This document shows positions 12,677 to 61,464 of a stretch of DNA of 64,000 nucleotides, one piece after another (within the stretch, counting starts at the first letter, position 1; each line of letters opens with the position of its first letter). A program made the position numbers and the translations under genes. Source of the DNA: Acidimicrobiales bacterium (GTDB lineage: Bacteria > Actinomycetota > Acidimicrobiia > Acidimicrobiales > Aldehydirespiratoraceae); the NCBI GenBank assembly GCA_963667505.2, contig OY763490.2:3245773-3309772 (forward strand), read 5' to 3'. Below the pieces are notes generated by a model. That model made no database searches. It saw only the letters and a program-made list of their open reading frames with translations, and was not told the DNA's origin.

Positions 12677-12704
12677 CCGCTCTCATCGACTGGATCGGTC
12701 ATAC

Positions 12705-15835: not shown

Positions 15836-15920
15836 GATACGCATCCGACTTCGGGGCCTTCCAAGGGCAGGACGGCGGGCCGGGCTCGGCGACCCCTGGC
15901 TGCGAGGCGCGTCGGCTGTA

Positions 15921-17216: not shown

Positions 17217-17227
17217 GGAACGCGACT

Positions 17228-18643
17228 CTATGAGCCACCGGGATCAATCGCAGCCTCGGCTTCCCGCGCGCGGCGGCGGGGGTAGATGAGGCTGAACAGG
17301 ATTAGGTTGCAGAGGAAGCCTCCGGCGCACACCATCCACACGGTGCGGTAGGCGGCCAGCTGGGCGGCGGGGCTGTCGGACTGGCCGATCATGGCGAACG
17401 CCACCGCGATGGCGAGGGCTACGGATAGCTGGAAGAAGGTGGTGCGGCCGGCGGCGGCCATGGCGTAGCGCTCCGGGGGGATGTCCCGCAGCGCCGCGCC
17501 CACAAGTTGCGAGAAGCCGGTCCCGGCCGCCAGCCCCACGAGCGCGGTGGCCACCAGCAGCTTGGCCAGCGACGGCGCGGTGGTGATCGAGAGAATCAGC
17601 CAGAGCACGCCTGCCGCGCCGCAGGTCGATCCGACGATGAGGATGGGAGCGTTGCCGATCCGGTCGGCCAGGCGCCCGGCCTGTGGGGCGACGAGGAACG
17701 ACACGACCGGGCCCACCGCGTAGGCCAGGCCCGTCTTGATGATCGACCAGCCCCACACGTCCTGGATGAACGACGGCAACGGCACCAGCAGCGCGAAGAA
17801 ACCCAATGCGAAGAACAGCGACCCGAGATTGCCCAGCACGAAAGAGCGGATCCGCATGAGTGCCAGGTCGAACAGGGGGGCCGGGTGTCGCCTGCTGCGG
17901 ATCGTGAACACCGCGATCATGGCGGCGCCGGCCGCGAACGAGCCGAGCGTGGGAGCGGTTCCCCAGCCCCAGGCCTCGCCCTGCACGATCCCGAGGATGA
18001 TGGTGCCCACCCCGAACGACGCCAGTGGCACTCCGATGACATCAACACGGCCGCCGGTGCGGCCCGCCTTGCTCTCGGCCAGCGCCCTGGCGCCGAGCAG
18101 CAGCGAGGCCGCCGCGACGGGAACATTCACGTAGAACACGGCCCGCCAACTGAAGGCCTCGATCAGCAGAGCCCCGAGAGTGGGCCCCAGAGCGGCCGCC
18201 AGCCCGCCGGTGGCGCCCCATACTCCGATGGCGGTCTGGTGGCGCCCGCGGGGGAATGCGGTGAGCAGCAGTGCGAGTCCGGCGGGGTATTGCATGGATC
18301 CGCCGACGGCCTGCAAAGCTCTCGCCGCGATGAGCACGCCAATGCTCGTCGAGGCCCCGGCGACTATCGATCCCGCCGCGAAAAGCACCAGGCCGAACAG
18401 GAATATCCGGCGACGTCCGTAGCGGTCGGCCAGCCAGCCCGACAGCAACAGCAGCGCGGCCACCACGATCGAGTAGGCGTTCACCACCCACGACAGCGCC
18501 GCCGGAGTGGCACCCAGCGAGGCTCGGATCTTCGGCAGCGCCAGCGAGATGATGGTGAGCTCCATGGCCACCATGAACACCGCCACCGAGACCACGGCTA
18601 GCGTCAGCCAGGCCGACCGGGGGACGCGTTCCATTATCGGCAA
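17228..18643 (-). CDS. MFS transporter (DHA2/EmrB-like, about 14 TMS)
   Basis: 471 aa, hydrophobic throughout. Motif A-like GWLADRYGRRRIF. Confidence 0.8.
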   Translation of the reverse strand: MPIMERVPRSAWLTLAVVSVAVFMVAMELTIISLALPKIRASLGATPAALSWVVNAYSIVVAALLLLSGWLADRYGRRRIFLFGLVLFAAGSIVAGASTSIGVLIAARALQAVGGSMQYPAGLALLLTAFPRGRHQTAIGVWGATGGLAAALGPTLGALLIEAFSWRAVFYVNVPVAAASLLLGARALAESKAGRTGGRVDVIGVPLASFGVGTIILGIVQGEAWGWGTAPTLGSFAAGAAMIAVFTIRSRRHPAPLFDLALMRIRSFVLGNLGSLFFALGFFALLVPLPSFIQDVWGWSIIKTGLAYAVGPVVSFLVAPQAGRLADRIGNAPILIVGSTCGAAGVLWLILSITTAPSLAKLLVATALVGLAAGTGFSQLVGAALRDIPPERYAMAAAGRTTFFQLSVALAIAVAFAMIGQSDSPAAQLAAYRTVWMVCAGGFLCNLILFSLIYPRRRAREAEAAIDPGGS

Positions 18644-18890: not shown

Positions 18891-20291
18891 ATGGCCACTG
18901 ATCTTGAGAGGTTCGTCGAAGCGGACGGACGCGAAGAGCAGATCCGAGAGGTGGAGGCCCGCATCGAGGCCGACGACATCCGGTACCTGTACTGCCAGTT
19001 CGTCTCGGTCACGGGCCGGATCATGGGCAAGGGCATACCGGCCAAGCACTTCGGCATGATCGCCCGCAAGGGCTTCCAACTCGTCTACGGCTCCACCGCC
19101 AACCTCTTCATCGACCGCCACGGCAACTACATCGGCTACGGCCCCGAGGCCCGCGAGCTCGTCGGCATCGGCGAGCCCGAGACGTTCATGCCGCTGCCCT
19201 GGGACCCCAAGACGGCCCGAGTGTGGTGCACGCTGTTCCGAGGCCGCGAGGAGGAGGTCGACGGCGGCGCCTACCTGACCTCGGACTGCCGAGGCAACCT
19301 CAGGCGGCTCCACGCCGACTTCGAGGCCAAGCACGGGCTGCACCTGCGGGCCGGCTGCGAGCCCGAGATGATGTGGCTCAAGGCCGACGCCGACGGCAAG
19401 CCCACGGTGGAGGGCATGACCAAGCCGAACTGCTACCACATCGACCAGTTCGCCGAGCTCCAGCCGCTGATCCACAAGGTGGTGGAGTACTGCGAGGCCA
19501 TGGGCCTGGACATGATCCAGGGCGACCACGAGGACGCCCCCGGCCAGCTCGAGCTGAACTTCATGTTCGACCGGGCCGAGGTCACCGCCGACCGGCTCAC
19601 CACCTACCGCCAGGTGTGCAAGCAGGTGGGCCGGGAGCTGGGCGCCTTCCCGTGCTTCATGCCCAAGCCGTTCATGGGGGTGTCGGCCAACGGGTGCCAC
19701 CACAACATCTCGCTGTGGGACGGCGACGGCAACAACAAGTTCATGCCCGAGGGCGACAACCCGCAGCTGCCCGGCCCGGTCGGCATGAAGGCCATCGGCG
19801 GCATCCTCGAGCACGTCCGGGCGCTGACCTGTCTCACGTCGCCGACGGTCAACTCCTACCGCCGGCTGTGGGACACCGGCTTCTGGGCGCCGGTGTTCGC
19901 CGACTGGGGCTTCCAGAACCGCACCACCGCCCTGCGGGTGAGCGCCCCGGGCCGCTTCGAGTACCGCTCGGTGGACAGCGCGGTCAACCCGCACCTGTCG
20001 TTCGCGGGGCTGCTGCAGGCCATGGACGACGGCCTCGACCGCAGCCTCGACCCGGGCGAGCCCGAGGAGCGCAACATCTACGAGGCCATGGAGGCGGGCA
20101 AGGACGTCCAGAAGATCCCGCTCACCCTGGGCGAGGCCCTGGAGGCGCTGCGCAGCGACGAGGTCGTCATGCGCGCGCTGCCGGGCGAGATGAGCAAGGT
20201 GTTCTTCCACTACAAGGACGACGAGTGGGAGCGGTTCCTGGCCACCGTGTCGGACTGGGACGTGGAGGAGTACCTGGACGTCCTTCCCTGA
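18891..20291 (+). CDS. gmaS: glutamine-synthetase-family enzyme, probable gamma-glutamylmethylamide synthetase
   Basis: 466 aa with a GS catalytic-domain fold. Sits immediately upstream of mgsABC-like genes. GGGGGAGAA lies before the ATG. Confidence 0.65.
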   Translation: MATDLERFVEADGREEQIREVEARIEADDIRYLYCQFVSVTGRIMGKGIPAKHFGMIARKGFQLVYGSTANLFIDRHGNYIGYGPEARELVGIGEPETFMPLPWDPKTARVWCTLFRGREEEVDGGAYLTSDCRGNLRRLHADFEAKHGLHLRAGCEPEMMWLKADADGKPTVEGMTKPNCYHIDQFAELQPLIHKVVEYCEAMGLDMIQGDHEDAPGQLELNFMFDRAEVTADRLTTYRQVCKQVGRELGAFPCFMPKPFMGVSANGCHHNISLWDGDGNNKFMPEGDNPQLPGPVGMKAIGGILEHVRALTCLTSPTVNSYRRLWDTGFWAPVFADWGFQNRTTALRVSAPGRFEYRSVDSAVNPHLSFAGLLQAMDDGLDRSLDPGEPEERNIYEAMEAGKDVQKIPLTLGEALEALRSDEVVMRALPGEMSKVFFHYKDDEWERFLATVSDWDVEEYLDVLP

Positions 20292-20346: not shown

Positions 20347-21276
20347 ATGTGCGGCATAGCCGGCGTGATCCACCGGCACGGCGCTGCCGACGTCGGCGCC
20401 GAGCTCACAGCCATGCTCCAGTCGATGAAGCACCGCGGGCCGGACTCCACCGGCTACGCGGTCTACGGACCGGCCGACGACATGGTCGTCATCCGTTTCG
20501 TGCTGGCCGAGCCCAACAAGAGCACCGGCTTCGGGATGGAGGAACGCCTCGAGCGAAACCGGGCCGAGGTGGAGAGCCGGCTGGCCAAGATCGGTGCCGA
20601 GGTGGCCACCGTCACCAGCGACACCGGCTACGCCTTCCGGGCCACCATCCGCTACGGCGGCGACCTGAAGGCTTTGGCCGACTACCTCGAGGACGTGCCC
20701 GGCTGCGAGGTGCTGTCGCTGGGCAGCTCTCTGGAGATCATCAAGGACCTCGGCGACGCCGAGACGGTCAGCGGCCAGTACGAACTGGGCTCTTTCCGGG
20801 GCACCCACGGCATCGGCCATGTGCGCATGGCCACCGAGTCCGAGGTCGACCTGGCCAGCGCCCACCCCTACTGGGCCTACCCGTTCGCGGACGTGGCCGT
20901 GGTCCACAACGGACAGCTCACCAACTACCACCAGTGGCGCCGCCGACTGGAGCAGCACGGCCACCGGTTCCAGAGCGAGTGCGACTCCGAGATCATCGCG
21001 GTGTACCTGGCCGAGTACATGTCGCGGGGCCTGTCGCTGGAGACGGCCATGAAGCACAGCCTCGACGACCTCGACGGCGTGTTCACCTACGTGTGCGTCA
21101 CCGGCAACGAGCTGGGCGTCGCCAAGGACGAGATGGCAGCCAAGCCGCTGGTGCTGTTCGAGTCCGATCCCCTGGTGGCGGTGGCCACCGAGGAGGTCGC
21201 CATCCGGGCCCTGGTCAAGCGCGAGGTCATAACCCGCGACCCCTACGAGCGGGAGGTGCTGGTGTGGCAGGTCTAG
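20347..21276 (+). CDS. mgsA: class-II glutamine amidotransferase domain protein, N-methylglutamate synthase subunit A-like
   Basis: N-terminal MCGIAGV (Ntn Cys2), 309 aa. Position between gmaS and the GXGXG-domain gene. Confidence 0.7.
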   Translation: MCGIAGVIHRHGAADVGAELTAMLQSMKHRGPDSTGYAVYGPADDMVVIRFVLAEPNKSTGFGMEERLERNRAEVESRLAKIGAEVATVTSDTGYAFRATIRYGGDLKALADYLEDVPGCEVLSLGSSLEIIKDLGDAETVSGQYELGSFRGTHGIGHVRMATESEVDLASAHPYWAYPFADVAVVHNGQLTNYHQWRRRLEQHGHRFQSECDSEIIAVYLAEYMSRGLSLETAMKHSLDDLDGVFTYVCVTGNELGVAKDEMAAKPLVLFESDPLVAVATEEVAIRALVKREVITRDPYEREVLVWQV

Positions 21277-21343: not shown

Positions 21344-22138
21344 ATGCCCGGCTCAGGGTCGCGCAGCGGCGTCAGCTACGACGCCCGGGGGCTGGTGGAG
21401 CCCCACGCCGAGATGCCCGACAACATCGAGATCGACGGAGGACGGGCTCGCTTCGACGCCACCGACCTGACCATCCGCCAGATCAACATGGCGCTGCGCA
21501 AGCTGATCTACAACGACGGCATCGGTGACGTGACCGTGCTCAACCCGTCCTCCAAGCACTCGCTGGCGGTCGGGATCCTCAAGCGCTGCCGCATCCACTT
21601 CGAGGGCAGCCCCGGCTGGTTCGCCTGCGGGCTCATCGACGGGCCCGAGGTCACCATCAACGGCCGGGTGGGCTGGTCGGTGGCCGAGAACATGATGTCG
21701 GGCGTGGTGACCGTCGAGCGCAGCGCGGGCTCGCTCACCGGGGCGGCCATCCGCGGCGGAGACCTGATCATCAAGGGCGACGTCGGGGCCCGCACCGGCA
21801 TCGACCAGAAGGGCGGCACCATCATCGTCACCGGCGACGTGGGCATCAACACCGGGTTCATGATGCAGCGTGGCCGCCAGATCATCTGCGGCAACGCCGG
21901 CATGAACCTGGGCGACTCCATGTACGACGGCACCATCTACGTGGCCGGCAAGGTGCGCTCGCTGGGCGTGGACTGCGTGCCGGGAGACTGGACCGACGCC
22001 GACACCGAGCTGATCAAGCGCAAGTTCCGCATCCACGGGCTCGGCGACCCGCCCGAGTTCCAGAAGTTCGTGTGCGGCAAGCAGCTCCACAACTACGACG
22101 CGCTGGAGCCCTCCGAGCGCAAGCTCGTCATCCACTAG
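21344..22138 (+). CDS. mgsB: GXGXG-motif (glutamate synthase alpha-subunit C-terminal domain-like) protein, N-methylglutamate synthase subunit B-like
   Basis: Repeated beta-helix G-x-G motifs (GDVGARTG, GDVGINTG, GNAGMNLG). Alternative start at 21413. Confidence 0.7.
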   Translation: MPGSGSRSGVSYDARGLVEPHAEMPDNIEIDGGRARFDATDLTIRQINMALRKLIYNDGIGDVTVLNPSSKHSLAVGILKRCRIHFEGSPGWFACGLIDGPEVTINGRVGWSVAENMMSGVVTVERSAGSLTGAAIRGGDLIIKGDVGARTGIDQKGGTIIVTGDVGINTGFMMQRGRQIICGNAGMNLGDSMYDGTIYVAGKVRSLGVDCVPGDWTDADTELIKRKFRIHGLGDPPEFQKFVCGKQLHNYDALEPSERKLVIH

Positions 22139-22252
22139 AGGCCGAGCGGAAGGGGAGCGATTCGTGAGCAAGTTCGCGAGGCATCGAGCGAGGCCGTGGC
22201 CCGAGCGGCCCGTGAGCGCAGCGAACAAGAGCGGGAATTAGGAGCACTGGTC

Positions 22253-23647
22253 ATGTCTGAAGTCAACAAGAGCACCGACGTCCTGGGCAAGAGCCGCATC
22301 TTCACGCCCGAGGTCATCAACGACATCCATGTGAAGTCCGAGCTGGGCCGCTACCGGATGCGAGGCTTCTCGATCTTCAAGAAGATCCCCCACTGGGACG
22401 AGCTGGTGTTCCTGCCGGGCACCCTCACCCGGTTCGTGATCGAGGGCTACCGCGAGAAGTGCGAGACCCGCACGGTCATCGGCTCGCGCTTCGCGGCCAA
22501 GCCCCTGGAGCTCGACATCCCGGTGTACATCACCGGCATGAGCTTCGGCGCGCTGTCGCTGGAGGCCAAGATGGCCCTGGCCAAGGGCGCCTCCATGGCC
22601 GGCACCGCCACCTGCTCGGGCGAGGGCGGGATGATCCCGCCCGAACGCGACCTGTCCACCAAGTGGTACTACCAGATCATCCAGAGCCGCTACGGCTTCA
22701 ACCCCCATCACCTGATGCTGGCCGACGCGGTGGAGTTCTTCATCGGACAGGGCTGCAAGGTCGGCCTCGGCGGCCACCTCATGGGCCAGAAGGTCACCGA
22801 GCAGGTGGCCGAGATGCGCTCGCTGCCCGCGGGCATCGACCAGCGCTCCCCGGCACGGCATCCCGACTGGCTCGGCCCCGACGACCTGTCGCTGAAGATC
22901 CAGGAGGTACGCGAGGCCACCGACTACCAGATCCCCATCCAGCTCAAGCTGGGCTCGGCCCGGGTCTACGACGACGTGCGCATGGCGGCCAAGTGCGGCC
23001 CCGACGTGATCTACCTCGACGGCGCCGAGGGTGGCACCGGCGCCGGACCCCACCTGGCCACCGAGGAGACCGGCATCCCGCTGATGGCGGCCATCCCCGA
23101 GGCCCGCCGGGCCCTCGAAGACGTGGGCCTGGCCGACGACATCGACCTGGTCGTGGCGGGCGGCATCCGCAACGGCGGCGACGTGGCCAAGTGCCTGGCC
23201 CTGGGGGCCGACGCGGTGGCGTTGGGCACGGCCGCGCTGATGGCGCTCAACTGCAACAAGGAGATCCCTGGCGTCACCGACTACGAGGGCACCATCGGCG
23301 TGCCCGCGGGCGAGTGCTACCACTGCCACACCGGCCGCTGCCCGGTGGGGGTGGCCACTCAGGACGTGGAGCTGCGCAAGCGCCTCGACGTCGACGAGGC
23401 CGCCCTGCGGGTCTACAACTTCCTGATCACGCTCACGATGGAGGTGCAGATGCTGGCCCGGGCCTGCGGCAAGACCGACATCCACTCACTGGAGCCCGAG
23501 GACCTGGCCGCCCTCACCCACGAGGCGGCGGCCATGGCCAAGGTGCCTCTGGCGGGAACCAACTACATCCCCGGCGTCACCGAGGAGCGCACCCTGGCCG
23601 AGATCAGGGACCTGTTCGACAAGCACGTCATCGACGGAGGAATGTGA
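22253..23647 (+). CDS. mgsC: FMN-binding glutamate synthase family protein, N-methylglutamate synthase subunit C-like
   Basis: GltS FMN-domain motifs (ITGMSFGALS, YLDGAEGGTGAGP, VAGGIRNGGDVAKCLALGADAV). TAGGAG lies upstream of the ATG at 22253. The tracked ORF starts at 22196. Confidence 0.75.
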   Translation: MSEVNKSTDVLGKSRIFTPEVINDIHVKSELGRYRMRGFSIFKKIPHWDELVFLPGTLTRFVIEGYREKCETRTVIGSRFAAKPLELDIPVYITGMSFGALSLEAKMALAKGASMAGTATCSGEGGMIPPERDLSTKWYYQIIQSRYGFNPHHLMLADAVEFFIGQGCKVGLGGHLMGQKVTEQVAEMRSLPAGIDQRSPARHPDWLGPDDLSLKIQEVREATDYQIPIQLKLGSARVYDDVRMAAKCGPDVIYLDGAEGGTGAGPHLATEETGIPLMAAIPEARRALEDVGLADDIDLVVAGGIRNGGDVAKCLALGADAVALGTAALMALNCNKEIPGVTDYEGTIGVPAGECYHCHTGRCPVGVATQDVELRKRLDVDEAALRVYNFLITLTMEVQMLARACGKTDIHSLEPEDLAALTHEAAAMAKVPLAGTNYIPGVTEERTLAEIRDLFDKHVIDGGM

Positions 23648-23688
23648 AATGGCTGGAACTGCCGACGCGACGACGAGGGAGCAGTGAC

Positions 23689-24144
23689 ATGGCCGGATCG
23701 GCGAGCACGGGCGAGAGCCCCCGCGAGACCCGCACGGTCGCCATCGACGCCGAGGTGCTGGCCGGCAAGCGCTTCGCCTATCAGGAGGACGTGTCGCTGG
23801 TGGAGGACATCGACCTGCTGGCGGCCACCCCCGGCCCCGACATCAACTGGCTGGAGGACATCACCCTGCTGGAGGAGGACGGCGTGCCCGCGGTGTTCGA
23901 CCGCTACTCGAACTCGTTTCTGAAGATCTACTTCCCGATCCCGCCCGGCCGCGAGGACGAGGTCGCCCGCAAGGTGCTCATCAAGCACCTGACCGAGGGC
24001 AACTCCTACGGGATCACGCTCAAGGACATCCACTGCAAGTTCCCGCAGGTAGAGCTGGGGCCGTGGGTGGACGATTCTCCGATCGTGGGCACCGACTGGC
24101 GCCAGCCGGTGCTGGAGGGATGGACCGCCCCCGCGAGCCACTGA
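23689..24144 (+). CDS. hypothetical acidic protein (151 aa), no family recognised
   Basis: In-frame tail of ORF 22459..24144. The ATG at 23689 is preceded by GAGGGAG. GC3-rich codon usage. Lies 41 nt after the mgsC stop and 42 nt before the flavoprotein gene. Confidence 0.55.
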   Translation: MAGSASTGESPRETRTVAIDAEVLAGKRFAYQEDVSLVEDIDLLAATPGPDINWLEDITLLEEDGVPAVFDRYSNSFLKIYFPIPPGREDEVARKVLIKHLTEGNSYGITLKDIHCKFPQVELGPWVDDSPIVGTDWRQPVLEGWTAPASH

Positions 24145-24186
24145 GACCGAGAGGCTGAGCGCGAGCAGACAAGGAGGGCAGCTCCA

Positions 24187-25518
24187 ATGGGACTTCCAGG
24201 CTCGGCACGCTATGTGATCATCGGCGCCGGCATACACGGCCTGTCGACTGCGTGGAACCTGGCCCGCGACCTGGGATCGTCGGGTCGGGGATCGGGCGAC
24301 GACGTGGTGGTCATCGACAAGACCGGCGTCGGCGCGGGCGCGTCCGGCATCGCCTGCGGCGTCGTGCGCAACAACTACTTCCAGCCGGCCATGCGCGAGC
24401 TGATGGCCCACTGCACCGACGTCTGGGAGAGCGACCCCGAGGCGTTCTCATACCATCCGGTGGGCTACCTGCAGATCAGCCACGAGGCCATGCGGGCCGA
24501 CGTGGCCTCGATCCACGCCCAGCAGCAGGCCATCGGCTACTCCTCGACCTTCGTCGAGGGCGCGGCGCCCTCGGCGGCGTACATGCGGGGGATCTTCGAC
24601 GACTGGCAGGCTCAGGGCGTCACCAGCGTGCTGCACGAGCACCGCGGCGGCTACGCCAACAACATGGCGTCGCTCAAGGGACTGCTGCAGAAGGCGGAAG
24701 CCGAGGGCGTGGCCGTGGTGGGCGGCGTGACCGTGACCGGCTTCGACCGCGACGCATCCGGGGCGGTCACTGCGGTGCTCACCGACCAGGGGCCGGTGGA
24801 GTGCGACCATGTGGTGGTGGCGGTCGGGCCGTGGGTCCAGCAGATCTGGGCCATGCTCGACCTGCCCTTCACTGTCGATGTGCTCGGACGCGACGGTCGC
24901 CTCCACCGCCGGCCCACCTGGACCTACATGTGCCTGCAGGAGGGCACGCTCGGTGTCGATCCGGGCTACCTCACCGACAACGACGGGAACATGCCGCCGG
25001 TGGTCCACATCGACACTGACGCCCCGCTGCACGACGAAGAAGGGCTGGTCACCGAGGGGCCGTGGGGCGTCTACTACAAGCCCGACTTCAACTTCGGCGG
25101 CGTGCAGGGCGGCTACATGCCCTACGTGGTGGACAAGCCCGCTGAGGAGGTCGCGGTCGATCCCTACGGCCCGGACTCGCCCGACTTCATCGTGGGCGCC
25201 GAGTTCTACCGCACCTGGAGCGCGGCGCTGGCCCACTGCCAGAAGCGCTTCGAGGGCAAGTCGCACCTGATGAGCACCGAGCCGTCGGGCGGCATCGGCA
25301 GCTTCTCGCCCGACAACTTCCCGGTGTTCGACACGTTCTGCGACAACGCCTACTTCATCGCCGACTCCAACCACGGCTACAAGATGATCGGCGTGGGCAG
25401 CCTGGTAGCCAAGGAGCTGCTGGGCGAGTCGCAGGCCCTGCTGGCGCCGTTCCGATGGTCGCGCTACGCCGAGGGCAGGCTCCACCCGGTCAGCAACTCG
25501 CCCTACCCCTGGAGCTGA
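24187..25518 (+). CDS. FAD-dependent oxidoreductase (DAO family, sarcosine-oxidase-beta-like)
   Basis: Dinucleotide fold YVIIGAGIHGLSTAWNLA. Motif GIACGVVRNNY resembles the SoxB/MgdA-type region. 443 aa. Confidence 0.7.
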   Translation: MGLPGSARYVIIGAGIHGLSTAWNLARDLGSSGRGSGDDVVVIDKTGVGAGASGIACGVVRNNYFQPAMRELMAHCTDVWESDPEAFSYHPVGYLQISHEAMRADVASIHAQQQAIGYSSTFVEGAAPSAAYMRGIFDDWQAQGVTSVLHEHRGGYANNMASLKGLLQKAEAEGVAVVGGVTVTGFDRDASGAVTAVLTDQGPVECDHVVVAVGPWVQQIWAMLDLPFTVDVLGRDGRLHRRPTWTYMCLQEGTLGVDPGYLTDNDGNMPPVVHIDTDAPLHDEEGLVTEGPWGVYYKPDFNFGGVQGGYMPYVVDKPAEEVAVDPYGPDSPDFIVGAEFYRTWSAALAHCQKRFEGKSHLMSTEPSGGIGSFSPDNFPVFDTFCDNAYFIADSNHGYKMIGVGSLVAKELLGESQALLAPFRWSRYAEGRLHPVSNSPYPWS

Positions 25519-25602: not shown

Positions 25603-27912
25603 GTGTACTCTTCGCTGGCCCGGCGGTGCTTCCGGCGTCCCTGGCGCGGACTCGTCGTCTGGCTCCTGGTCCTGTTCGCGGTGCTGGGTATCTCCGGGAA
25701 TCTCGGAGAGGCCTACAGCGCCGATTTGGCCATAGCCGGCACCGAGAGCCACGACGGCAACGACCTTCTCAAGCAGCACTTCGCCGGCGTTGGCGCCGGA
25801 CCGGCCGGCACCATCGTGTTCCGGGCCGAGCAAGGCGTGGACGATCCCGAGGTGCGGTCGGCGATGGGCGAGTTGTTCGCTCGGGTGAGGGCACTCGAGG
25901 ACACCTCCATCATCACGCCGTACGATCCGCTGGTCGGGCCGCTGCGAATCGCGCAGGACGGCGACCATGCAGGCCGCGTCGCATACGCCGATGTGAGTCT
26001 CCCGGCCGGGACGAGCGCCACCGAGGCCCAGGACATGGGAAGGACCATCGAGGGCCTGATCTCCGAGCTCGAGTTGCGATCCATCGAGGGCCTCGAGGTG
26101 GAAGTGGGCGGGGTCTGGTTCGCCGAACTGAGGCCGCCCGAGTCCGAGGCCATCGGGCTGGCCTTCGCGGTGTTCGTCCTCATCGCAATGCTGGGTTCGG
26201 TTATGGCCATGGGCGCCACTGTGGTGGCGGCTCTGGTCACCGTCGGCATCGGCGCGGCCACCATCATCGTCCTCAGCAACTTCATGACCGTGCCCGACTT
26301 CGCGCCGGCCATAGGCCTCATGATCGGGCTGGGCGTCGGCATCGACTACGCACTGTTCATCATCACCCGCTACCGGGACGCGCTGAGCGAGGGCCACGAG
26401 CGGGAGCAGGCCCTAGTGCTGGCGCTCGACTCCGCAGGCAGGTCCGTCATATTCGCGGGCGCGACTGTCGTCGTGTCGCTGCTGGGCATGCTGTTCATCG
26501 GGATCCCGTTCGTGACCGGCTTCGGCGTCGCCGCGGCCGCGACCGTGACAGTGGTGGTGGTCGGCTCGGTCACGCTGCTGCCGTCGCTGGTCGCCCTGCT
26601 CGGCGACCGGCTCACCACCACCCGGGTTCGGGGCGTGGTGGCCGCGGCGCTGTTCAGCGCAGCCCTGTTCGGCGCCGGCGCCGGGATCGAGCCGTTGGCC
26701 ATCGGCGCCGTGCCGGCTGCTCTGGTCGTGCTGGCGGCCGGGATGTTCGGAGGGGACGGGAACCCTCTGCGACGAAGGCTGCGGTCCCGTCGGACCCGTC
26801 CGCTCCGCGAGACGGGGTGGTACCGGCTCAGCCGCGCCGTGCAGGCTCGGCCGTGGAGCTTCGCCATAGGCGGCACCGCGCTGCTGCTGTTGTTGGCTGC
26901 TCCGGTGTTCGTGCTGCGGTTCGGATTCGCGGACGAGAGCAACTACGCCGCGGAGACCACCACCCGCAAGGCCTACGACCTGCTCGTCGACGGCTTCGGA
27001 GCGGGTGCCAACGGTCCTCTGCTGGTGGTGACCGAGGTGTCGGGCGTCGCCCAGATGGCCGAGTTGGCCAGCCTGGCAGGGGCCATCGAGGCCACCGACG
27101 GGGTCAGCTTCGTCAGCCCTCCCATCCCCAACAGCCCGCTGGCGCCGACCGCGGCCGCCCTCGAGGTCCGGCCGGCCACCGGGCCCCAGGCTGACGAGAC
27201 CGAGGCCCTCGTCAAGCACCTTCGCAGCAATGTGATCCCCGCGGCCGCCGCCGGGACGAGCCTCGATCCTGTGATCACCGGGCTGGTCGCGGTCAAGGCC
27301 GACGTCAGCGACTTCTTGAAGTCGCGCACCTTGGTGTTCTTCGTGGCGGTGCTGGGCGCCTCCTTCCTGCTGCTGATGGCCGTGTTCCGCTCGCTGGTCG
27401 TGCCGCTGAAGGCCGTCATCATGAACATGCTCTCGATCGGCGCGGCCTACGGCGTGCTGGTGGCCGTGTTCCAGTGGGGCTGGCTGGGCGGCCTCGTGGG
27501 GGTCGAGCCGGGGCCGATAGAGCCGTTCATGCCTATGATGCTGTTCGCGGTCCTGTTCGGCCTGTCCATGGACTACGAGGTGTTCCTCCTGTCGAGGATG
27601 AAGGAGGAGTTCGAACGCACCGGCGACGCGGTGAACTCCGTTGCCGACGGCTTGGCCCTGACAGCCCGAGTGATCACCGCGGCCGCCTTGATCATGGTGT
27701 TCGTGTTCGGGAGCTTCGTGTTCGAGGACCAGCGGGCAATCAAGATGTTCGGCGTCGGTTTGGCGGCCGCGGTTGCAGCCGACGCCAGCCTTGTACGGAT
27801 GCTCATCGTGCCCTCGACGATGGAGCTGCTCGGCGCTCGCAACTGGTGGCTCCCAGGCTGGCTCGACCGCATTCTTCCGAACGTCAGAGTTGAAGGCAGC
27901 AACATGGCCTGA
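25603..27912 (+). CDS. MMPL family (RND superfamily) transporter
   Basis: 769 aa with two 6-TM bundles. Motif GIDYALFIITRYRDAL recurs as SMDYEVFLLSRMKEEF. Confidence 0.85.
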   Translation: MYSSLARRCFRRPWRGLVVWLLVLFAVLGISGNLGEAYSADLAIAGTESHDGNDLLKQHFAGVGAGPAGTIVFRAEQGVDDPEVRSAMGELFARVRALEDTSIITPYDPLVGPLRIAQDGDHAGRVAYADVSLPAGTSATEAQDMGRTIEGLISELELRSIEGLEVEVGGVWFAELRPPESEAIGLAFAVFVLIAMLGSVMAMGATVVAALVTVGIGAATIIVLSNFMTVPDFAPAIGLMIGLGVGIDYALFIITRYRDALSEGHEREQALVLALDSAGRSVIFAGATVVVSLLGMLFIGIPFVTGFGVAAAATVTVVVVGSVTLLPSLVALLGDRLTTTRVRGVVAAALFSAALFGAGAGIEPLAIGAVPAALVVLAAGMFGGDGNPLRRRLRSRRTRPLRETGWYRLSRAVQARPWSFAIGGTALLLLLAAPVFVLRFGFADESNYAAETTTRKAYDLLVDGFGAGANGPLLVVTEVSGVAQMAELASLAGAIEATDGVSFVSPPIPNSPLAPTAAALEVRPATGPQADETEALVKHLRSNVIPAAAAGTSLDPVITGLVAVKADVSDFLKSRTLVFFVAVLGASFLLLMAVFRSLVVPLKAVIMNMLSIGAAYGVLVAVFQWGWLGGLVGVEPGPIEPFMPMMLFAVLFGLSMDYEVFLLSRMKEEFERTGDAVNSVADGLALTARVITAAALIMVFVFGSFVFEDQRAIKMFGVGLAAAVAADASLVRMLIVPSTMELLGARNWWLPGWLDRILPNVRVEGSNMA

Positions 27913-54612: not shown

Positions 54613-55956
54613 TCAGGCCGAGTCGGCCAGGTAGGACTCCAGCGAGTCGTCGAGGGCGTCCTCCCACCGGGTGTGGTGGATGGGCGCCACCGTGCCCGTC
54701 AGCGGCGACGTGTGCCCGTGGTCGCGGTAGCCGATGATCGACTGCTTCTTGTGCTTCTTCCAGTCGTAGAACATCTTGTTGACCAGTGGCGTGTTGAAGT
54801 CCGGGTAGTCGGTCTGGTCCACCAGGTCCTGGGTGTAGTCGCCCTGGAAGTCGATGCAGGCGTAGTCGTCGGCCAGCGCGTCCTCCGCGGCCTGGGCCTC
54901 CGCGATCCAGCGGGCCTGCTCGTCGGCGCCGGGCAGGTCGATACGGCCCATGATCACGTCGCGGGCGTACCAGGCTTGCGCGTCGAACATGTTGAACGTG
55001 TACCACTGGTCCTGCATCCCCAGGTACATGATCCGGTTCTCGGGCTGGAACACCACGCCGCGGTACAGCATCGAGGTGGCCAGCCGGTTGGCGGTCACCA
55101 GCCGCAGCTCGTCGTCCATGAACGGGAAGTGGTGCAGGTAGCCGGTGCACGACACGATGGCGTCCACCTCGGCGGTCGAGCCGTCGGCGAAGTGCACTGT
55201 CCGGCCCTCCACCCGGGTCAGGATGGGCCGCTCGGTGATGCCCTCGGGCCAGTCGAAGCCCATGGGGCCGCTGCGCGACGAGCAGACCACCGAGCGGGCC
55301 CCGTACTTCCAGAGCTGCGAGGCGACGTCCTCGGCCGAGTAGCTGGCTCCGATCACCAGCACGTCGCGGTCGGCGAACTGCACCGCGTCGCGGAAGTCGT
55401 GGGCGTGCATGAGCGTGCCCCCGAAGGTCTCATAGCCGGGGTAGTGGGGCATGTTGGGGACCGAGAAGTGCCCGGTGGACACCACCACATAGTCGAAGTC
55501 CTCGCTGATGTCGGCGTCGTCGGCCTGGTCGTGGGCGGTCACGGTGAAGCCGTCGCCTTGGGCGGAGCGGCTCACTCGGCGCACCGGATGGTTGAAGCGG
55601 ATCTGGTCGCGGAAGCCGCTGCGGTCGGCCCGGCCCACGATGTAGTCGTAGAGCACCTCGCGGGGCGGGAACGACGCGATCGGCCTGCCGAAGTGCTCCT
55701 CGAAGCCGTAGTCGGCGAACTCGAGGCACTCCTTGGGGCCGTTGGACCACAGGTAGCGGTACATGCTGGCGTGGCAGGGCTCCCCGTGCTCGTCGAGCCC
55801 GGTGCGCCAGCTGTAGTTCCAGAGCCCGCCCCAGTCCTCCTGCTTCTCGAAACAGACGACGGTGGGCGCGGCGTCACCCGCGGCGGTGTCGCTGGCGAAG
55901 GCGTGGAGTTGCGACAGCCCGCACGGCCCGGCTCCGATGACAGCCACTCGTGTCAT
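54613..55956 (-). CDS. tmm: flavin-containing monooxygenase, probable trimethylamine monooxygenase
   Basis: 447 aa. Motifs VIGAGPCG, EKQEDWGGLWNYSWRTGLDEHGEPCHASMYRYLWSNGPKECLEF, FMO motif FGGTLMHAHDFRD, and NADPH site VIGASYSAED. From memory this closely matches bacterial Tmm. Adjacent to the tdm-like gene. Confidence 0.8.
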   Translation of the reverse strand: MTRVAVIGAGPCGLSQLHAFASDTAAGDAAPTVVCFEKQEDWGGLWNYSWRTGLDEHGEPCHASMYRYLWSNGPKECLEFADYGFEEHFGRPIASFPPREVLYDYIVGRADRSGFRDQIRFNHPVRRVSRSAQGDGFTVTAHDQADDADISEDFDYVVVSTGHFSVPNMPHYPGYETFGGTLMHAHDFRDAVQFADRDVLVIGASYSAEDVASQLWKYGARSVVCSSRSGPMGFDWPEGITERPILTRVEGRTVHFADGSTAEVDAIVSCTGYLHHFPFMDDELRLVTANRLATSMLYRGVVFQPENRIMYLGMQDQWYTFNMFDAQAWYARDVIMGRIDLPGADEQARWIAEAQAAEDALADDYACIDFQGDYTQDLVDQTDYPDFNTPLVNKMFYDWKKHKKQSIIGYRDHGHTSPLTGTVAPIHHTRWEDALDDSLESYLADSA

Positions 55957-56085: not shown

Positions 56086-58476
56086 TCAGGCGAGACCGCG
56101 GACGCGGGTCTTGTCGGGATCGTAGAACGGGTAGCGGACCACCTCGGCTTCGATGCGCTTCTCGTGACCGTCGAGCTTGCCGACCTCCACGGCTGTGCCG
56201 ATCTCGGTGTACTCCACCGCCATGCGGCACAGGGCGATGTTCTTGCGCAGGATCGGCGAGATGGTGGCGCTGGTGACCACGCCCACCTGGTTGCGCCCCG
56301 CGTACACGCCGTCGCCGTGGGCGGCGGGCTCGCCTCCGCCCAGTTCCAGGCCGACCAGGCGGCGCTGCGGGTTGTCGCGGCGCTTGGTGAGCGCCTCGCG
56401 GCCGATGAAGTCGTCGTCGTTGGTCTTGAGAGCGACCGTGAAGCCGATGCCGGCCTCGTACGGGTCGGTCTGGTCGCAGAACTCGTGGCCCGCGAAGATC
56501 AGCCCCGCCTCGATCCGCAGGATGTCCAGCGCGGCCAGGCCCATGGGCACGAGGCCGTGGTCGGCGCCTGCCTGGAAGACTGCATCCCACACCGCGGGGG
56601 CGTCGGAGGGATGGCAGAACACCTCGTAGCCGAGCTCGCCGGTGTAGCCGGTGCGAGACACCACCAGCGGGATGCCGTCGTGGTCGCCGATACGGGCGAT
56701 GGCGAACCGGAACCACCCCATCTCCGCGATGGTGGGCTGGTCGGGGCGGGTCCAGGTGGCCTGCTCGAGGATGCGACGGCTGTTGGGCCCCTGCACCTGC
56801 AGGTTGTGGAGCTGCTCGGTGGAACTGCGGACCCAGGCCTGCAGTCCCAGGCGCTGGGCCTGCTCGCGCAGCCAAACTCCGCTGTATCCGAGCTGCCCGC
56901 CGATCCAGCGGAAGTTCTCGCGGCCCAGCCGGAACACGGTGCCGTCGTCGATCATGCCGCCCGTCGGGTGGCACATGGCGGTGTAGACCACCTGGCCGTC
57001 GGCGAGGCGGCGTATGTTGCGGGTGACGCAGGTCTGCATCAGCAGCTCGGCGTCGGGGCCGGTGACCTCGTACTTGCGCAGCGGGGAGAGGTCGATGGCC
57101 GCGGCGGCCTGCCGACAGGCCCAGTACTCGGCGACCGGGCCGTGGGCGGTGTAGGAGTCGGCCAGCCAGTAGCCGCAGTACTCGCTGAAGCTGCGGGTCA
57201 GCGCGGAGGTGCGGGGATGGAAGCCGGTCTCGGAGGTGAGCTGTGCCTCGGAGTCTGCGGTCATGCGGATGGCCGTCGCTTTCTTGAACCGGTTGGCGGC
57301 TGGGTACACCCGCACCGCGATGTCGGTCGGGTTCCAGGCGTTGGCCGCGTCGATGTCGTCGGGGCAGGCGGTGGTGACGCAAACCAGGTCCTCGAGGGCT
57401 CGCAGCAGCACGTAGTCGCCGGGGCGGGACCAGGGCTCGTCCAGGTAGATCTGGTTGGCGTCGTCGAGGTTGGTGTTGTAGAAGAAGTTGATGGCCTCCC
57501 AGCCCCGGCGGCGGGCCACGCCGTAGGGATCGAGGGCGTCGTTGATGTTTTCGGTGCAGTTGACGTGGCCGGGGTAGCCCATCTCCTCGTAGTAGCGGGC
57601 GTTGCAGGCGGTGTTGAAGGTGTCGTGACGGCCGACGGTGTCCTGGACCACCTCCACCAGCGGCTGCATCCTGGCGTTGAAGAACTTCGAGTACAGGCCG
57701 GGCGCGGGACAGCTCGCCCCCATGAGGGTGCGGGTGATGGTGGCGTCGAGGCTCAGCTCGACGCCACCGTCTAGGTCGGCCGCCGCGAAGCACTGGAAGT
57801 CCGAGCACTGCCGCCCCTCAACGTCCACCACCTGGAACCAGTCGCCCTTGGCCACCTCGTATGCCGCCGCGGTGCAGCGACCGACGATGAAGTCCTGGCT
57901 GGGGTCGGTCAGCGGCGCCGGCAGCAGAGGCTCGACTTCGGCAGCGGGGTTGCTTCGGTGGACGTAGGCGACCAGGTCGGTGGGCGGCACGCCGCCGTGG
58001 GCCGACATGGGCTCGCCGGGCGCGGCGACCGCGCAGGCCACGTCGGCGTGGGCCACCACTCGGGCGGTGACGCCCGGCGGGGTGTCGCCGCTCAGGACCC
58101 GCAGCGGCGTCGCGGCCCGCACCGCGGCCAGGTCGATGCCGGCCCGCGCCAGTCCGGCCCGCACCCGGCGGGCGTCCGCCAGCGGCGCGGACAGGATCCC
58201 CAGCGCGGCCGGCTTGTCGTCGCCCGATGCCCGCCCGCGGTGGCCGTCGCCGTCGACGACGCTGAGCAGGCCTGGGTCGGATCGGCCCGCCGTGTCGAAG
58301 GTGACCAGTTCACAGCCCTGCCGCCCCTCGGGATCGACGACCTCTAGTTCGTCTCCGGCGTCGAGGGCCACCACGGTGGCGCCGCCACCGGTCACCCGGT
58401 AGCGCTCCACCCCCGGCCCGAGCAGCATCAGCCCCGGCACCACCATCCGGGACTGCTCAGGCGAGATCGTTGTCAT
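56086..58476 (-). CDS. tdm: DUF1989 plus GcvT (aminomethyltransferase-fold) fusion, probable trimethylamine-N-oxide demethylase
   Basis: 796 aa from MTTISPEQ. N-terminal half is DUF1989-like (WFQVVDVEGRQCSDFQCF...CPDDIDAANAWN). C-terminal half is GcvT-like (IDLSPLRKYEVTGPDA...VSRTGYTGELGYEV). The 130 Arg-rich residues upstream in the tracked ORF were discarded. Confidence 0.8.
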   Translation of the reverse strand: MTTISPEQSRMVVPGLMLLGPGVERYRVTGGGATVVALDAGDELEVVDPEGRQGCELVTFDTAGRSDPGLLSVVDGDGHRGRASGDDKPAALGILSAPLADARRVRAGLARAGIDLAAVRAATPLRVLSGDTPPGVTARVVAHADVACAVAAPGEPMSAHGGVPPTDLVAYVHRSNPAAEVEPLLPAPLTDPSQDFIVGRCTAAAYEVAKGDWFQVVDVEGRQCSDFQCFAAADLDGGVELSLDATITRTLMGASCPAPGLYSKFFNARMQPLVEVVQDTVGRHDTFNTACNARYYEEMGYPGHVNCTENINDALDPYGVARRRGWEAINFFYNTNLDDANQIYLDEPWSRPGDYVLLRALEDLVCVTTACPDDIDAANAWNPTDIAVRVYPAANRFKKATAIRMTADSEAQLTSETGFHPRTSALTRSFSEYCGYWLADSYTAHGPVAEYWACRQAAAAIDLSPLRKYEVTGPDAELLMQTCVTRNIRRLADGQVVYTAMCHPTGGMIDDGTVFRLGRENFRWIGGQLGYSGVWLREQAQRLGLQAWVRSSTEQLHNLQVQGPNSRRILEQATWTRPDQPTIAEMGWFRFAIARIGDHDGIPLVVSRTGYTGELGYEVFCHPSDAPAVWDAVFQAGADHGLVPMGLAALDILRIEAGLIFAGHEFCDQTDPYEAGIGFTVALKTNDDDFIGREALTKRRDNPQRRLVGLELGGGEPAAHGDGVYAGRNQVGVVTSATISPILRKNIALCRMAVEYTEIGTAVEVGKLDGHEKRIEAEVVRYPFYDPDKTRVRGLA

Positions 58477-58481
58477 CGCGG

Positions 58482-58898
58482 TCAGCGGCGGCGGCCTAGG
58501 GGTCCTGACAGGCCTCGGCCGCTTGGGCGATCGCCGTCGGTGCCGTCTCCAGGGGCGGCGACGTTGGCGAACATGTCCCAGACCAGCAGTACGGCAGCCA
58601 CGACGGATGCCGCGGCCGCGATCCAGAGACCGGCGGCCGGGTCGGTCTTGTCGTCGAACACGGCTCGCAGCGCGGTGGCGGCCGCGAACCCGGCGCCGAT
58701 CCAGGCCGGCCGCCAGCCCACCTGCACCAGCCCGACGGTCACCAGGCCCGCCACCAGGACGAGCTGGCCCTCGTTGGTCTCGACGCCCTGCACCGACTTG
58801 GTCGCGCTGCCTGATGCGGCCGTGTGCCAAGGCAGGAACATCGCCGCGGCCGCGCCGGCCATGCACACTTGGGCGACCCGTCTGCGGATGCTCCTCAC
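58482..58898 (-). CDS. hypothetical integral membrane protein (126-138 aa)
   Basis: 3-4 hydrophobic segments. GTG at 58898 or ATG at 58862. The stop lies 5 nt before the tdm ATG. Confidence 0.5.
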   Translation of the reverse strand: MRSIRRRVAQVCMAGAAAAMFLPWHTAASGSATKSVQGVETNEGQLVLVAGLVTVGLVQVGWRPAWIGAGFAAATALRAVFDDKTDPAAGLWIAAAASVVAAVLLVWDMFANVAAPGDGTDGDRPSGRGLSGPLGRRR

Positions 58899-59507: not shown

Positions 59508-60896
59508 CTAGCGGCTATTGCTGTAGTCGGACTGCAGCACGCCCGCAGAGACCACTTCAGTTCCGTCGGGCTGGATGATCGTCTCGTCGGCACGGCCGTG
59601 CTCCGGGAAGAAGTCCATCCCGTACTCGGCCATGTCGAGGCCCTCGATCTCGACCTCGGGCGGCACCCTCAGCAGGTTGAGCTTCTTGAGGATCCACGAG
59701 GCGATGTAGCCAGTGAAGAACGCCAGCGGTATGAGCGCGGCAGCCCCCACGAGCTGGCCCAGGAAGCTGGTCTCCACGCCGGCCGGACCGGTCGGGTACC
59801 CGGCTGCGAAGATGCCGACGCATATCACCCCGAAGAAGCCCATCACGCCGTGGACGGTCACCGCGCCGACGGCATCGTCGATGCGGGCCCTCGTGTCGAA
59901 CCAGTTGCCCACGTGGTAGGCGATCCCGGCCGAGAAGAAGGCGAGGATCAGGACCAGGTTCGGGCTGTAGATGTCGGCGCCCGCCGAGACGGTCACGACG
60001 CCTGCCAGGCCCCCGGAGATGGTCCAGAACGGATCGCCCCGAGAGAAGAGGTAGCCGCCGGCGAAGCCGCCCGCGAAGCCCATGGTGATGGTGTAGGTGA
60101 TGGCCGACAGAGTGGCCGGGTTGAAGTAGATGTTCGCCCAGCCCGGAGTGGTGTCGGCCGTAATGGCCAGGCACGCCGCGTAGAACGCGTAGAACGCCGA
60201 GAAGATGATCATCAGCCCCATCAGCGTCATGTGGACGTTGTGGGGTTTGAACGTTCGGGCGTTGCCGTCGGCGTCGTACCTCCCGATTCTCGGGCCGAGG
60301 TTGAACAGCACCCCCAAGGCGAAGATGCCCGAGATGCCGTGGACCACGCCGGAGGCGGCGAAGTCGTGGTAGCCGAAGTGGACGGTCAGCCAGCCGCCGT
60401 AGCTCCATCCCCAAGCCGCGGCCACGACCCAGACCAGGCCGCCCATCAGGGCGGTCAGCCACAGGTAGGCCGAGATGCGGATGCGCTCCAGGACTGCGCC
60501 GGACATGATCGATCCGGTCGTCCACGAGAACAGCACGAAGGCCGCCCAGAAGACGCCGGTGATGTTGTCGCCGAGGTTCGGTCCCGCGGAGCCGTCCCAC
60601 GGCAGGCCGTAGCCGTCGCCGCAGAAGTACAGCCCCTCAAGTCCTGCGGGGCTGGCGCCGTCGGCTGAGACCGTGAACTTCAGTCCCTCCTGCATGCAGA
60701 AGTACACGTACCAGCCGAAGTAGTAGAACGTCGGTGTCACGACGGCTATTGTCATGATGTTCTTCATTGCCGTGGACATGATGTTCTTGCGTCGTGATAC
60801 ACCGGCTTCATATGTCATGAAGCCCACATGCAAGAACCACATGAGAGCGACAGTGAAGAAGTAGTAAGCCTCGGTGAACACAATAGAAGTGTCCAT
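59508..60896 (-). CDS. amt: ammonium transporter (Amt/MEP family)
   Basis: About 462 aa from MDTSIVFTEAYYFF with about 11 TM. Family stretches DFAASGVVHGISG, AVTVHGVMGFFGVI. Confidence 0.85.
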   Translation of the reverse strand: MDTSIVFTEAYYFFTVALMWFLHVGFMTYEAGVSRRKNIMSTAMKNIMTIAVVTPTFYYFGWYVYFCMQEGLKFTVSADGASPAGLEGLYFCGDGYGLPWDGSAGPNLGDNITGVFWAAFVLFSWTTGSIMSGAVLERIRISAYLWLTALMGGLVWVVAAAWGWSYGGWLTVHFGYHDFAASGVVHGISGIFALGVLFNLGPRIGRYDADGNARTFKPHNVHMTLMGLMIIFSAFYAFYAACLAITADTTPGWANIYFNPATLSAITYTITMGFAGGFAGGYLFSRGDPFWTISGGLAGVVTVSAGADIYSPNLVLILAFFSAGIAYHVGNWFDTRARIDDAVGAVTVHGVMGFFGVICVGIFAAGYPTGPAGVETSFLGQLVGAAALIPLAFFTGYIASWILKKLNLLRVPPEVEIEGLDMAEYGMDFFPEHGRADETIIQPDGTEVVSAGVLQSDYSNSR

Positions 60897-61041
60897 CGAC
60901 TCACCCCCAATTCTTCTGGTCTGTCCCCGGCCGGCTGGCCGGGCCACCGCTCACGATAGCACACCGATGCAATCCGCCCCGAATCAGGCAAGGACGGACG
61001 CTGTTTGCGGCCTGGCCGGTGGTGCGTGCGGCGGGTGGGCC

Positions 61042-61464
61042 TCAGTCGTCGCCGGGCTCGTCCACGTTGATCTGTTCGAGCTCGCCCGATCCGGCGTTCA
61101 CCCACACCGCGGCGCGGTGCAGGAAGTCTTCGGGGCCGCCGTCGGGCTCGCGCACGGTGAACACCACCACCCACATCGACTCGGGCGGGAAGCCCTGTCG
61201 CAGTACCTGCGCCTCGGTGTGCTCGGGGGCGAACGCCCCGGGGTGGGCGGCCAGCGCGGCGCGGGCGGTGGCCTGGGCCTCCTGTTCGGAGATGTCGACT
61301 CCCTGGCAGCTGCGGGTGAAGAAGAGCACGGCCAGCAGGACCCCGACGGCGATCAGCAGCACGGTGCGTCCCTGTAGTCGGCCCAGCCGCGAGAGAAAGC
61401 TGTTCGACCGCGCGCCGGCCGGCTCGGGATCGTGCGGCTCGGGCGCGGAGGGCAGGTCAGTCAT
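61042..61464 (-). CDS. hypothetical membrane-anchored protein
   Basis: Start taken at MTDLPS (61464). One TM (TVLLIAVGVLLAVLFF) followed by a soluble domain of about 95 aa. Overlaps the upstream gene by 8 nt. Confidence 0.5.
   Translation of the reverse strand: MTDLPSAPEPHDPEPAGARSNSFLSRLGRLQGRTVLLIAVGVLLAVLFFTRSCQGVDISEQEAQATARAALAAHPGAFAPEHTEAQVLRQGFPPESMWVVVFTVREPDGGPEDFLHRAAVWVNAGSGELEQINVDEPGDD

Follow-up and report, generated by a model that had tools for sequence, protein, structure and literature searches.

A small protein family coupled to a divergent N-methylglutamate synthase-like gene set, and a stand-alone flavoprotein at the expected position of mgdABCD, in Acidimicrobiia

In the sea and in soil, methylated amines are major nitrogen and one-carbon (C1) compounds, and annotation of the glutamate-mediated pathway follows the eight-gene proteobacterial model everywhere. 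This N-methylglutamate pathway, as found in the methylotrophs Methyloversatilis universalis, Methylobacterium extorquens, and Ruegeria pomeroyi, consists of GmaS, MgsABC, and MgdABCD. The DNA analyzed in this study, hereafter the window, is a stretch of 64,000 nucleotides (nt) of contig OY763490.2 from an Acidimicrobiales bacterium (GC content, 68%). It carries genes of the gmaS and mgsABC kinds, and the position where mgdABCD would be expected is occupied by a gene for an acidic protein of 151 amino acids (aa), here called p151, and a gene for a single DAO-family flavoprotein. The locus therefore raises the question of whether these two proteins together replace MgdABCD, as an earlier note on this DNA had proposed, or serve different steps. 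We favor, with a probability of about 0.6, an arrangement in which p151 is a subunit or accessory protein of a divergent synthase, and the flavoprotein is an independent module that stands in place of MgdABCD.

p151 and its coupling to mgsC

The genes for a glutamine synthetase (GS)-like ligase, an MgsA-like, an MgsB-like, and an MgsC-like protein, p151, and the flavoprotein probably constitute a six-gene operon of an Acidimicrobiia bacterium. The p151 gene (23689..24144, plus strand) is separated from the mgsC-like gene by 41 nt (23648-23688) and from the flavoprotein gene by 42 nt (24145-24186). Its GC fractions at the three codon positions (0.65/0.43/0.95) are as in the real genes of this window, and the third-position value resembles that of its neighbors. 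An alternative start codon, GTG at 23644, is preceded by a GGAGGA Shine-Dalgarno sequence and overlaps the TGA stop codon of the mgsC-like gene, which would lengthen the protein to 166 aa. The protein (pI 4.5) had been regarded as an orphan, which is incorrect: 7,471 homologues, all unnamed, were obtained at E ≤ 1e-3 in a search of 5.8 billion proteins, and the look-up of cluster members yielded no name or annotation. A scan of GTDB with one genome per species detected p151 relatives in at least 593 genomes, and the best 80 loci, from which the synteny was taken, belong to Acidimicrobiia and Thermoleophilia (including Solirubrobacterales and Gaiellales). The family is large but very tight, because an exhaustive phmmer search of 1.84 billion representatives clustered at 50% identity gave just 184 clusters, most of which are fragments or frameshifted calls; genuine members share roughly 65% identity or more. 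No tblastn match to p151 or to the flavoprotein was found in 72,556 plasmids.

The surroundings of these homologues indicate which gene p151 follows. An mgsC-like gene lies directly upstream of p151 in all 72 GTDB loci with enough upstream DNA, and the full set of GS-like, mgsA-like, mgsB-like, and mgsC-like genes is found upstream in 60 of 62 such loci. In the converse test, which was seeded on MgsC, the gene right after mgsC was p151 in 76 of 76 metagenome loci, so that p151 stands behind mgsC in 148 of 148 loci when both sets are summed. The flavoprotein gene follows p151 immediately in 31% of the GTDB loci (23/74), which are mostly from Acidimicrobiia, and in 25% of the metagenome loci (14/55). 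Within 10 kb of p151, it is found in 31 of the 47 complete loci, in three arrangements, i.e., downstream on the same strand, upstream and divergent, and downstream and convergent; in Solirubrobacterales, it lies upstream on the opposite strand, and p151 is still behind mgsC. Because of this difference in adjacency, and because flavoprotein homologues also occur without p151 (see below), p151 tracks one type of MgsC, and the flavoprotein is an independent module. The co-occurrence with mgsABC that the earlier note proposed to look for in other actinobacterial genomes was thus found in every case for p151 and an mgsC-like gene, but not in every case for the flavoprotein, and the two genes do not form the pair that had been described.

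The distance from the mgsC stop codon to the first conserved motif of p151 has a median of 44 nt (155 loci). In 77 of these loci, p151 has a possible start codon in overlap with the stop codon of mgsC (ATGA or GTGA), and 57 more allow a gap of 0 to 20 nt, which makes 134 of 155 loci tight. With this spacing, p151 would be translated together with MgsC.

Across three actinobacterial classes, 65 positions of p151 are at least 97% invariant, and these include many acidic and aromatic residues as well as H100, H115, and H151. The sole cysteine residue (C116) is not invariant, and no cofactor-binding motif is present. The protein has no match in Pfam (only noise up to E ≤ 10), NCBIfam, or the PDB sequences. 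The AlphaFold2 (AF2) model, which was built with 52 homologues, has a mean predicted local distance difference test score (pLDDT) of 69, with a confident core of about 80 residues (31 to 110) that contains three short strands and two helices, and with low-confidence tails. Foldseek gave no fold match in the PDB (best E = 1.8), although the library included both the heterotetrameric sarcosine oxidase (TSOX) entries that were matched by the flavoprotein (2gag, 1vrq, and 3ad7) and the glutamate synthase (GOGAT) entries that were matched by sequence. The protein does not resemble SoxD or SoxG, as it has neither a Pfam match to these subunits nor fold similarity to chains C and D of TSOX. We read the confident core with loose tails as typical of a subunit that becomes ordered on its partner. 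Since p151 is small, acidic, constrained, partly extended, and translationally coupled to mgsC, we infer most simply that it binds MgsC. It would most likely be a tightly bound fourth structural or accessory subunit of the synthase, largely extended and folded on its partner, and its docking site on MgsC may be the tail or the cluster face, both of which are described in the next section.

In 13 Solirubrobacterales-type loci (e.g., L023:10339-10797 and L030:10423-10842), p151 is followed by a gene for a conserved 139-aa protein that has a CxxC...CxxC zinc-ribbon-like motif and a hydrophobic C-terminal segment. In L015 (10552-18058) and some other Solirubrobacterales loci, the cluster is adjoined by Puu-like genes for a flavin amine oxidase, a PuuD-like gamma-glutamyl hydrolase, an aldehyde dehydrogenase, and a second DAO/PuuB-like oxidase.

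The GS-like and MgsABC-like proteins

The first gene of the putative operon encodes the GS-like ligase (18891..20291, plus strand; 466 aa; Pfam Gln-synt_C, E = 6e-84). It is followed on the same strand by genes for an MgsA-like class-II amidotransferase subunit (20347..21276; 309 aa; Pfam GATase_6/7), an MgsB-like GXGXG beta-helix subunit (21344..22138; 264 aa; Pfam GXGXG, E = 2e-14), and an MgsC-like FMN subunit (22196..23647; 483 aa; Pfam Glu_synthase, E = 7e-94), the true start of which is possibly the ATG at 22253. The MgsA-like protein begins with MCGI and thus keeps the Cys1 nucleophile. The gene architecture is that of MgsABC, i.e., three separate genes for a class-II GATase with Cys1, a GXGXG protein, and an FMN-binding Glu_synthase, and, together with the GS-like ligase, it is what the cluster has in common with the N-methylglutamate pathway. 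We used the clusters of Paracoccus, Methylobacterium, Pseudomonas, and Streptomyces plasmids as canonical references; these contain mgsA, mgsB, and mgsC together with glnT (gmaS), which is located downstream of mgsC or upstream of mgsA. The gene order of the window differs from that of the N-methylglutamate pathway in that the GS-like gene comes first, and the window has p151 as an additional, obligatory member, whereas no p151-like open reading frame (ORF) was found in the canonical plasmid clusters examined.

The sequences themselves are considerably divergent. Identity to the canonical proteins is 31% for the GS-like ligase (Paracoccus and Methylobacterium GmaS), 35% for MgsA, 36% for MgsB, and 53 to 54% for MgsC. 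Canonical MgsC proteins are 75 to 81% identical to each other across phyla, and MgsC proteins of the p151 type from other classes are 84 to 98% identical to that of the window, which places the window MgsABC-like set outside the tight canonical orthologous group of the four reference sources. The GS-like ligase scored 327 bits against TIGR03105 (GmaS, type III GS) and fails this model, the cutoff of which is 469.6. Its best PDB match is the glutamate--methylamine ligase 9qur (221 bits), and GS-I follows closely at about 205 bits. By sequence comparison, the set is a divergent paralogue of canonical GmaS/MgsABC, so that the names gmaS and mgsABC used earlier for these genes describe their kind correctly but not their orthology, and "gmaS/mgsABC/mgdA" calls based on KEGG orthology (KO) or hidden Markov models (HMMs) in these lineages rest on paralogues. 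Canonical MgsC was found in none of the 47 complete p151-type loci. In the Acidimicrobiales locus L022 (8075-12602), canonical gmaS/mgsABC genes stand immediately after a p151-type operon with its flavoprotein, and their MgsC is 75 to 80% identical to alphaproteobacterial genes. This double set points to a horizontal acquisition or, alternatively, to sets that differ in substrate.

The MgsC-like protein has a cysteine motif (23243..23350) composed of C353 (within ALNC), an insert of 18 aa, and then C374, C377, and C382 (GECYHCHTGRCPVG). In the alignment with GltB (7mfm and 2vdc), C353, C377, and C382 coincide with the three cluster-ligand positions, and C374 is a fourth cysteine; the CPVGVATQ motif is also common to both proteins. 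On the other hand, the MgsC-like polypeptide consists of the FMN domain only, GltB has no counterpart of the 18-aa insert and the fourth cysteine, and the operon has no GltD or ferredoxin partner gene. The similarity to GltB is approximately 35% over 313 aa (123 bits), as compared with 400 bits for canonical MgsC. The motif was observed in 71 of 71 p151-type MgsC proteins, and the canonical MgsC proteins examined have no cysteines at the GltB 3Fe-4S ligand positions. Judging from these residues, p151-type MgsC probably contains an Fe-S cluster. A second difference from canonical MgsC is a C-terminal extension, which in the window covers 23 aa past PLAGTNYIPG (23576..23644). Such an extension, of 20 to 46 aa, is present in 69 of 69 p151-type proteins in which a PLAGTNYIPG-type motif was located and is absent from the six canonical-type MgsC proteins examined. 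The MgsC protein of L085 keeps the cysteines but has no extension and no p151 gene, and hence it is the extension, rather than the cysteines, that co-varies with p151.

The stand-alone flavoprotein

The flavoprotein gene (24187..25518, plus strand) encodes 443 aa, and Pfam DAO matches residues 9 to 227 (E = 7e-32). The protein had been described as SoxB-like, which is valid for its fold but not for its family: the score against TIGR01373 (SoxB/MgdA) is 72.4 bits, far below the cutoff of 529, and the match is limited to residues 10 to 223. Sequence models cover only the N-terminal half of the protein. The AF2 model is of high confidence (pLDDT 87, predicted TM-score 0.89), and in Foldseek it matched, with query TM-scores of 0.67 to 0.73, E values of 1e-25 to 1e-22, and 16 to 20% identity, the beta subunit of Pyrococcus horikoshii L-proline dehydrogenase (PDH1 beta), TSOX beta, the monomeric sarcosine oxidases (MSOX) of Thermomicrobium and Bacillus, and dimethylglycine oxidase (DMGO)/dehydrogenase (entries 1y56_B, 3ada_B, 2gag_B, 1pj5, and 2gb0). 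All of these oxidize the C-N bond of N-substituted amino acids, and they share the two-domain fold and the GxGxxG FAD motif with the flavoprotein. In the profile alignment, R61 (VVRNNY) and K399 (NHGYKM) correspond to the IIRSNY and GGFKG segments of SoxB, the Arg and Lys residues of which we take, from the TSOX and MSOX structures, to bind the substrate carboxylate. The A-K-H-D-H sequence of SoxB is aligned with A-N-N-M-A, so that the position of the histidine that carries covalent FMN, presumably the residue that defines SoxB, is Asn/Ala in the flavoprotein. Thus, on the basis of the model, the protein can be assigned to the SoxB/MSOX/DMGO structural class, with the two-domain DAO/GR2 fold and the Arg and Lys positions kept, and by its sequence it is not a member of the SoxB/MgdA family (TIGR01373).

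Unlike SoxB/MgdA, the flavoprotein has no partner subunits encoded in the operon or in those window ORFs that were scanned, and it has no fused GcvT domain. Homologues of the SoxA/MgdC-type alpha, gamma (SoxG), and delta (SoxD) subunits were not found among these ORFs, and the only GCV_T domain among them is that of the trimethylamine N-oxide (TMAO) demethylase Tdm; both points agree with the earlier note. A single flavoprotein is thus present instead of four subunits, with no MgdBCD in the cluster, and an amine-oxidizing flavoprotein in the cluster is itself a feature shared with the N-methylglutamate pathway. The flavoprotein, which stands alone at the expected mgd position, is a plausible replacement for MgdABCD, as the earlier note suggested, but p151, which belongs to the synthase side, is not. 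The flavoprotein is a plausible candidate, from its sequence and setting, for a single-subunit N-methylglutamate oxidase or dehydrogenase; it would most likely oxidize the N-methyl C-N bond of N-methylglutamate, or of the N-alkylglutamate formed by this synthase, to yield glutamate and the C1 unit as formaldehyde, and would alone do the work of MgdABCD. As such, it is a concrete candidate for N-methylglutamate oxidation in organisms without mgd genes, and a gap at this step has been noted in a homarine degrader that has no mgdABCD (PMC13236597).

The subfamily is very conserved (70 to 75% identity across four phyla), and homologues of 72 to 77% identity occur without p151 in L083, L084, L085, and L086. 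In L085, the flavoprotein homologue (72%) is part of a DAO-ACAD-Tdm-FolD operon beside canonical-type mgsCBA/gmaS genes without p151; hence the flavoprotein adjoins both the p151-type and the canonical-type synthases. JGI labels two homologues of 70 to 72% identity, one of which is the L085 protein, as "methylglutamate dehydrogenase subunit A." In L083 (8558-11320), from a gammaproteobacterial metagenome-assembled genome (MAG), the homologue (75%) is located 16 nt after a Peptidase_M24-family gene and near the genes for electron transfer flavoprotein (ETF) alpha and beta, which hints that, in this organism, the protein works as a dehydrogenase or has a different N-methyl amino acid as its substrate.

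As regards the C1 unit, a 374-aa GcvT-like gene directly follows the flavoprotein gene in L070 (11839-12984), and GcvT-like genes are present in 7 of the 47 complete loci; these observations hint that tetrahydrofolate (THF) capture of C1, where present, is supplied in trans. The p151-type clusters of L077, L078, and L068 (about 12.2 to 14.9 kb) also have stand-alone genes for GcvT-like aminomethyltransferases of about 374 aa nearby, in some cases as a tandem pair, and in L077 and L078 the flavoprotein was not found within 10 kb. The stand-alone proteins could be THF-dependent C1 acceptors or demethylases.

Alternative explanations and genomic setting

The proposal that p151 and the flavoprotein form a minimal two-subunit N-methylglutamate-oxidizing enzyme, with p151 as the Sox/Mgd gamma or delta subunit, now seems highly improbable. 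It has in its favor that, in the window, the flavoprotein gene comes right after p151 on the same strand, with 42 nt between them, and that the same adjacency is seen in 23 of 74 genome loci. These are outweighed by the invariable position of p151 behind mgsC (148/148), as compared with just 31% and 25% for the flavoprotein behind p151, by the p151-less flavoprotein homologues (72 to 77% identity) of L083 to L086, and by the Solirubrobacterales loci, in which the flavoprotein is upstream on the opposite strand and p151 stays behind mgsC. The proposal is thus largely refuted by synteny, and the lack of a SoxD/SoxG Pfam match and of a Foldseek PDB match for p151, with TSOX entries in the library, also speaks against it. 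A different role for p151 on the synthase side, in which it is no stable subunit but helps to assemble the Fe-S-bearing MgsC-like protein, inserts its cofactor, or regulates it, is quite unlikely in our estimation. It would produce the same synteny and translational coupling as a subunit, and the absence of a cofactor-binding motif, the variable C116, and the L085 MgsC, which keeps its cysteines without p151, are all compatible with it, but the stop/start overlap and the 65 near-invariant positions seem more in keeping with a stoichiometric partner that has a large interface than with a transient factor.

The substrate is a separate matter. It is conceivable, though unlikely, that the p151-type set acts on another amine (e.g., dimethylamine, ethylamine, or a sponge- or soil-derived amine) or is a reductive, Fe-S-dependent, 2-oxoglutarate-aminating synthase, and that the flavoprotein oxidizes the matching N-alkylglutamate. 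The set forms a distinct paralogous clade, its GS-like protein fails the GmaS model, L022 has both sets side by side, and the MgsC-like protein has the GOGAT cluster cysteines that the canonical, redox-neutral N-methylglutamate synthase has lost. Tdm, which forms dimethylamine, is linked, yet a dmmABC search of the window and about 160 loci revealed no DmmABC homologue; this absence covers 4 to 10 kb around the clusters and not the rest of the genome. Moreover, the p151-type set is alone in most loci (canonical MgsC, 0/47) and may simply be the actinobacterial version for methylamine, the canonical set of L022 looks horizontally acquired, and methylamine would account equally well for the linkage of Tmm, Tdm, and Amt. 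In a bolder form of the idea, to which we give only a slight chance, the mechanism of the p151-type enzyme differs from that of the canonical, redox-neutral synthase: four subunits would make N-alkylglutamate in an Fe-S-dependent manner, and p151 would cap or gate MgsC on its cluster side. A glutamate-mediated route made up of this enzyme and the single-subunit flavoprotein might then also take dimethylamine and fill the "missing Dmm" step in organisms with tmm and tdm but without dmmDABC.

Several points weigh against the arrangement that we favor, in which p151 belongs to the synthase and the flavoprotein replaces MgdABCD. In 16 of the 47 complete loci, no flavoprotein gene was found within 10 kb of p151. 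Its homologues also occur with no mgs or p151 genes nearby, at 75% identity in gammaproteobacterial and Gemmatimonadota (Candidatus Palauibacter) genomes and at 77% in a Verrucomicrobiales-labeled contig, and therefore its substrate could be another N-methyl amino acid, e.g., sarcosine. The presence of a paralogous synthase (31 to 53% identity) beside a canonical set in L022 means that the amine substrate may differ from methylamine, and p151 could be a chaperone or regulator instead of a stoichiometric subunit. Apparent MgsC-p151 and p151-DAO fusions, such as P0245 (617 aa) and P0299 (596 aa), were considered and rejected, as their Arg/Pro-rich, out-of-frame stretches are frameshift artefacts. 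The analysis shows that a large part of the Actinomycetota uses a different version of the pathway, with a paralogous synthase that has Fe-S-type cysteines, an obligatory and unannotated fourth protein family, and often a lone flavoprotein instead of MgdABCD. This part amounts to at least 593 species genomes, and the best 80 are Acidimicrobiia and Thermoleophilia that range from sponge symbionts to soil bacteria. In the searchable literature, we found nothing on "Poriferisodalis," actinobacterial GmaS, a fourth mgs gene, or this pathway variant.

The wider window has a methylated-amine setting. Approximately 30 kb downstream of the operon, the minus strand encodes the trimethylamine monooxygenase Tmm (54613..55956; NF058570, 738 bits, cutoff 675), Tdm (56086..58866; NF053776, 1169 bits, cutoff 1100; Pfam DUF1989, GCV_T, and GCV_T_C), and the ammonium/methylammonium transporter Amt (59508..60947; Pfam Ammonium_transp, E = 2e-64). 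Because Tmm and Tdm pass NCBIfam equivalog models and Amt accompanies them, the context of methylated-amine catabolism is real, and the linkage of tmm, tdm, and amt is a further likeness to the N-methylglutamate pathway. The closest homologues of the window proteins are found in Acidimicrobiia MAGs, several of which are Candidatus Poriferisodalis or Aldehydirespirator, and the nearest relatives of the operon are from sponge-associated MAGs.

In other loci, Tdm is adjoined by a protein of the acyl-CoA dehydrogenase (ACAD) fold (468 to 478 aa; L085:2686-4122, and also L023, L030, L033, L042, L047 [16068-17474], and L072). In Thermoleophilia loci, the ACAD-fold protein occurs with a flavin reductase (about 218 aa), and Tmm of the flavin-containing monooxygenase (FMO) type was not detected there; the two proteins may constitute a two-component amine monooxygenase in place of Tmm or Dmm. 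Between Amt and an XRE/PuuR-like regulator, the window has a 156-aa ORF (61042-61512, minus strand) with a good coding signal and without a Pfam or NCBIfam match.

The plus-strand run of genes from the GS-like ligase through the MMPL transporter (25603..27912; Pfam MMPL) is compact and without notable promoter- or terminator-like breaks. The coordinates and content of the p151 and flavoprotein genes, the gaps around them, and the MMPL neighbor are as the earlier note described them. The MMPL gene is downstream in only 2 of the 80 loci (L002 and L006), and the transporter is no conserved part of the system. Upstream of the operon and divergent from it, the minus strand (10889-17216 and 17228-18643) encodes hydantoinases B and A, a DAP_DH_C-type dehydrogenase, a luciferase-like monooxygenase, and a DHA2 MFS transporter, and the luciferase-like monooxygenase and MFS genes keep their position in the close Acidimicrobiia loci (L001 to L007 and L010).

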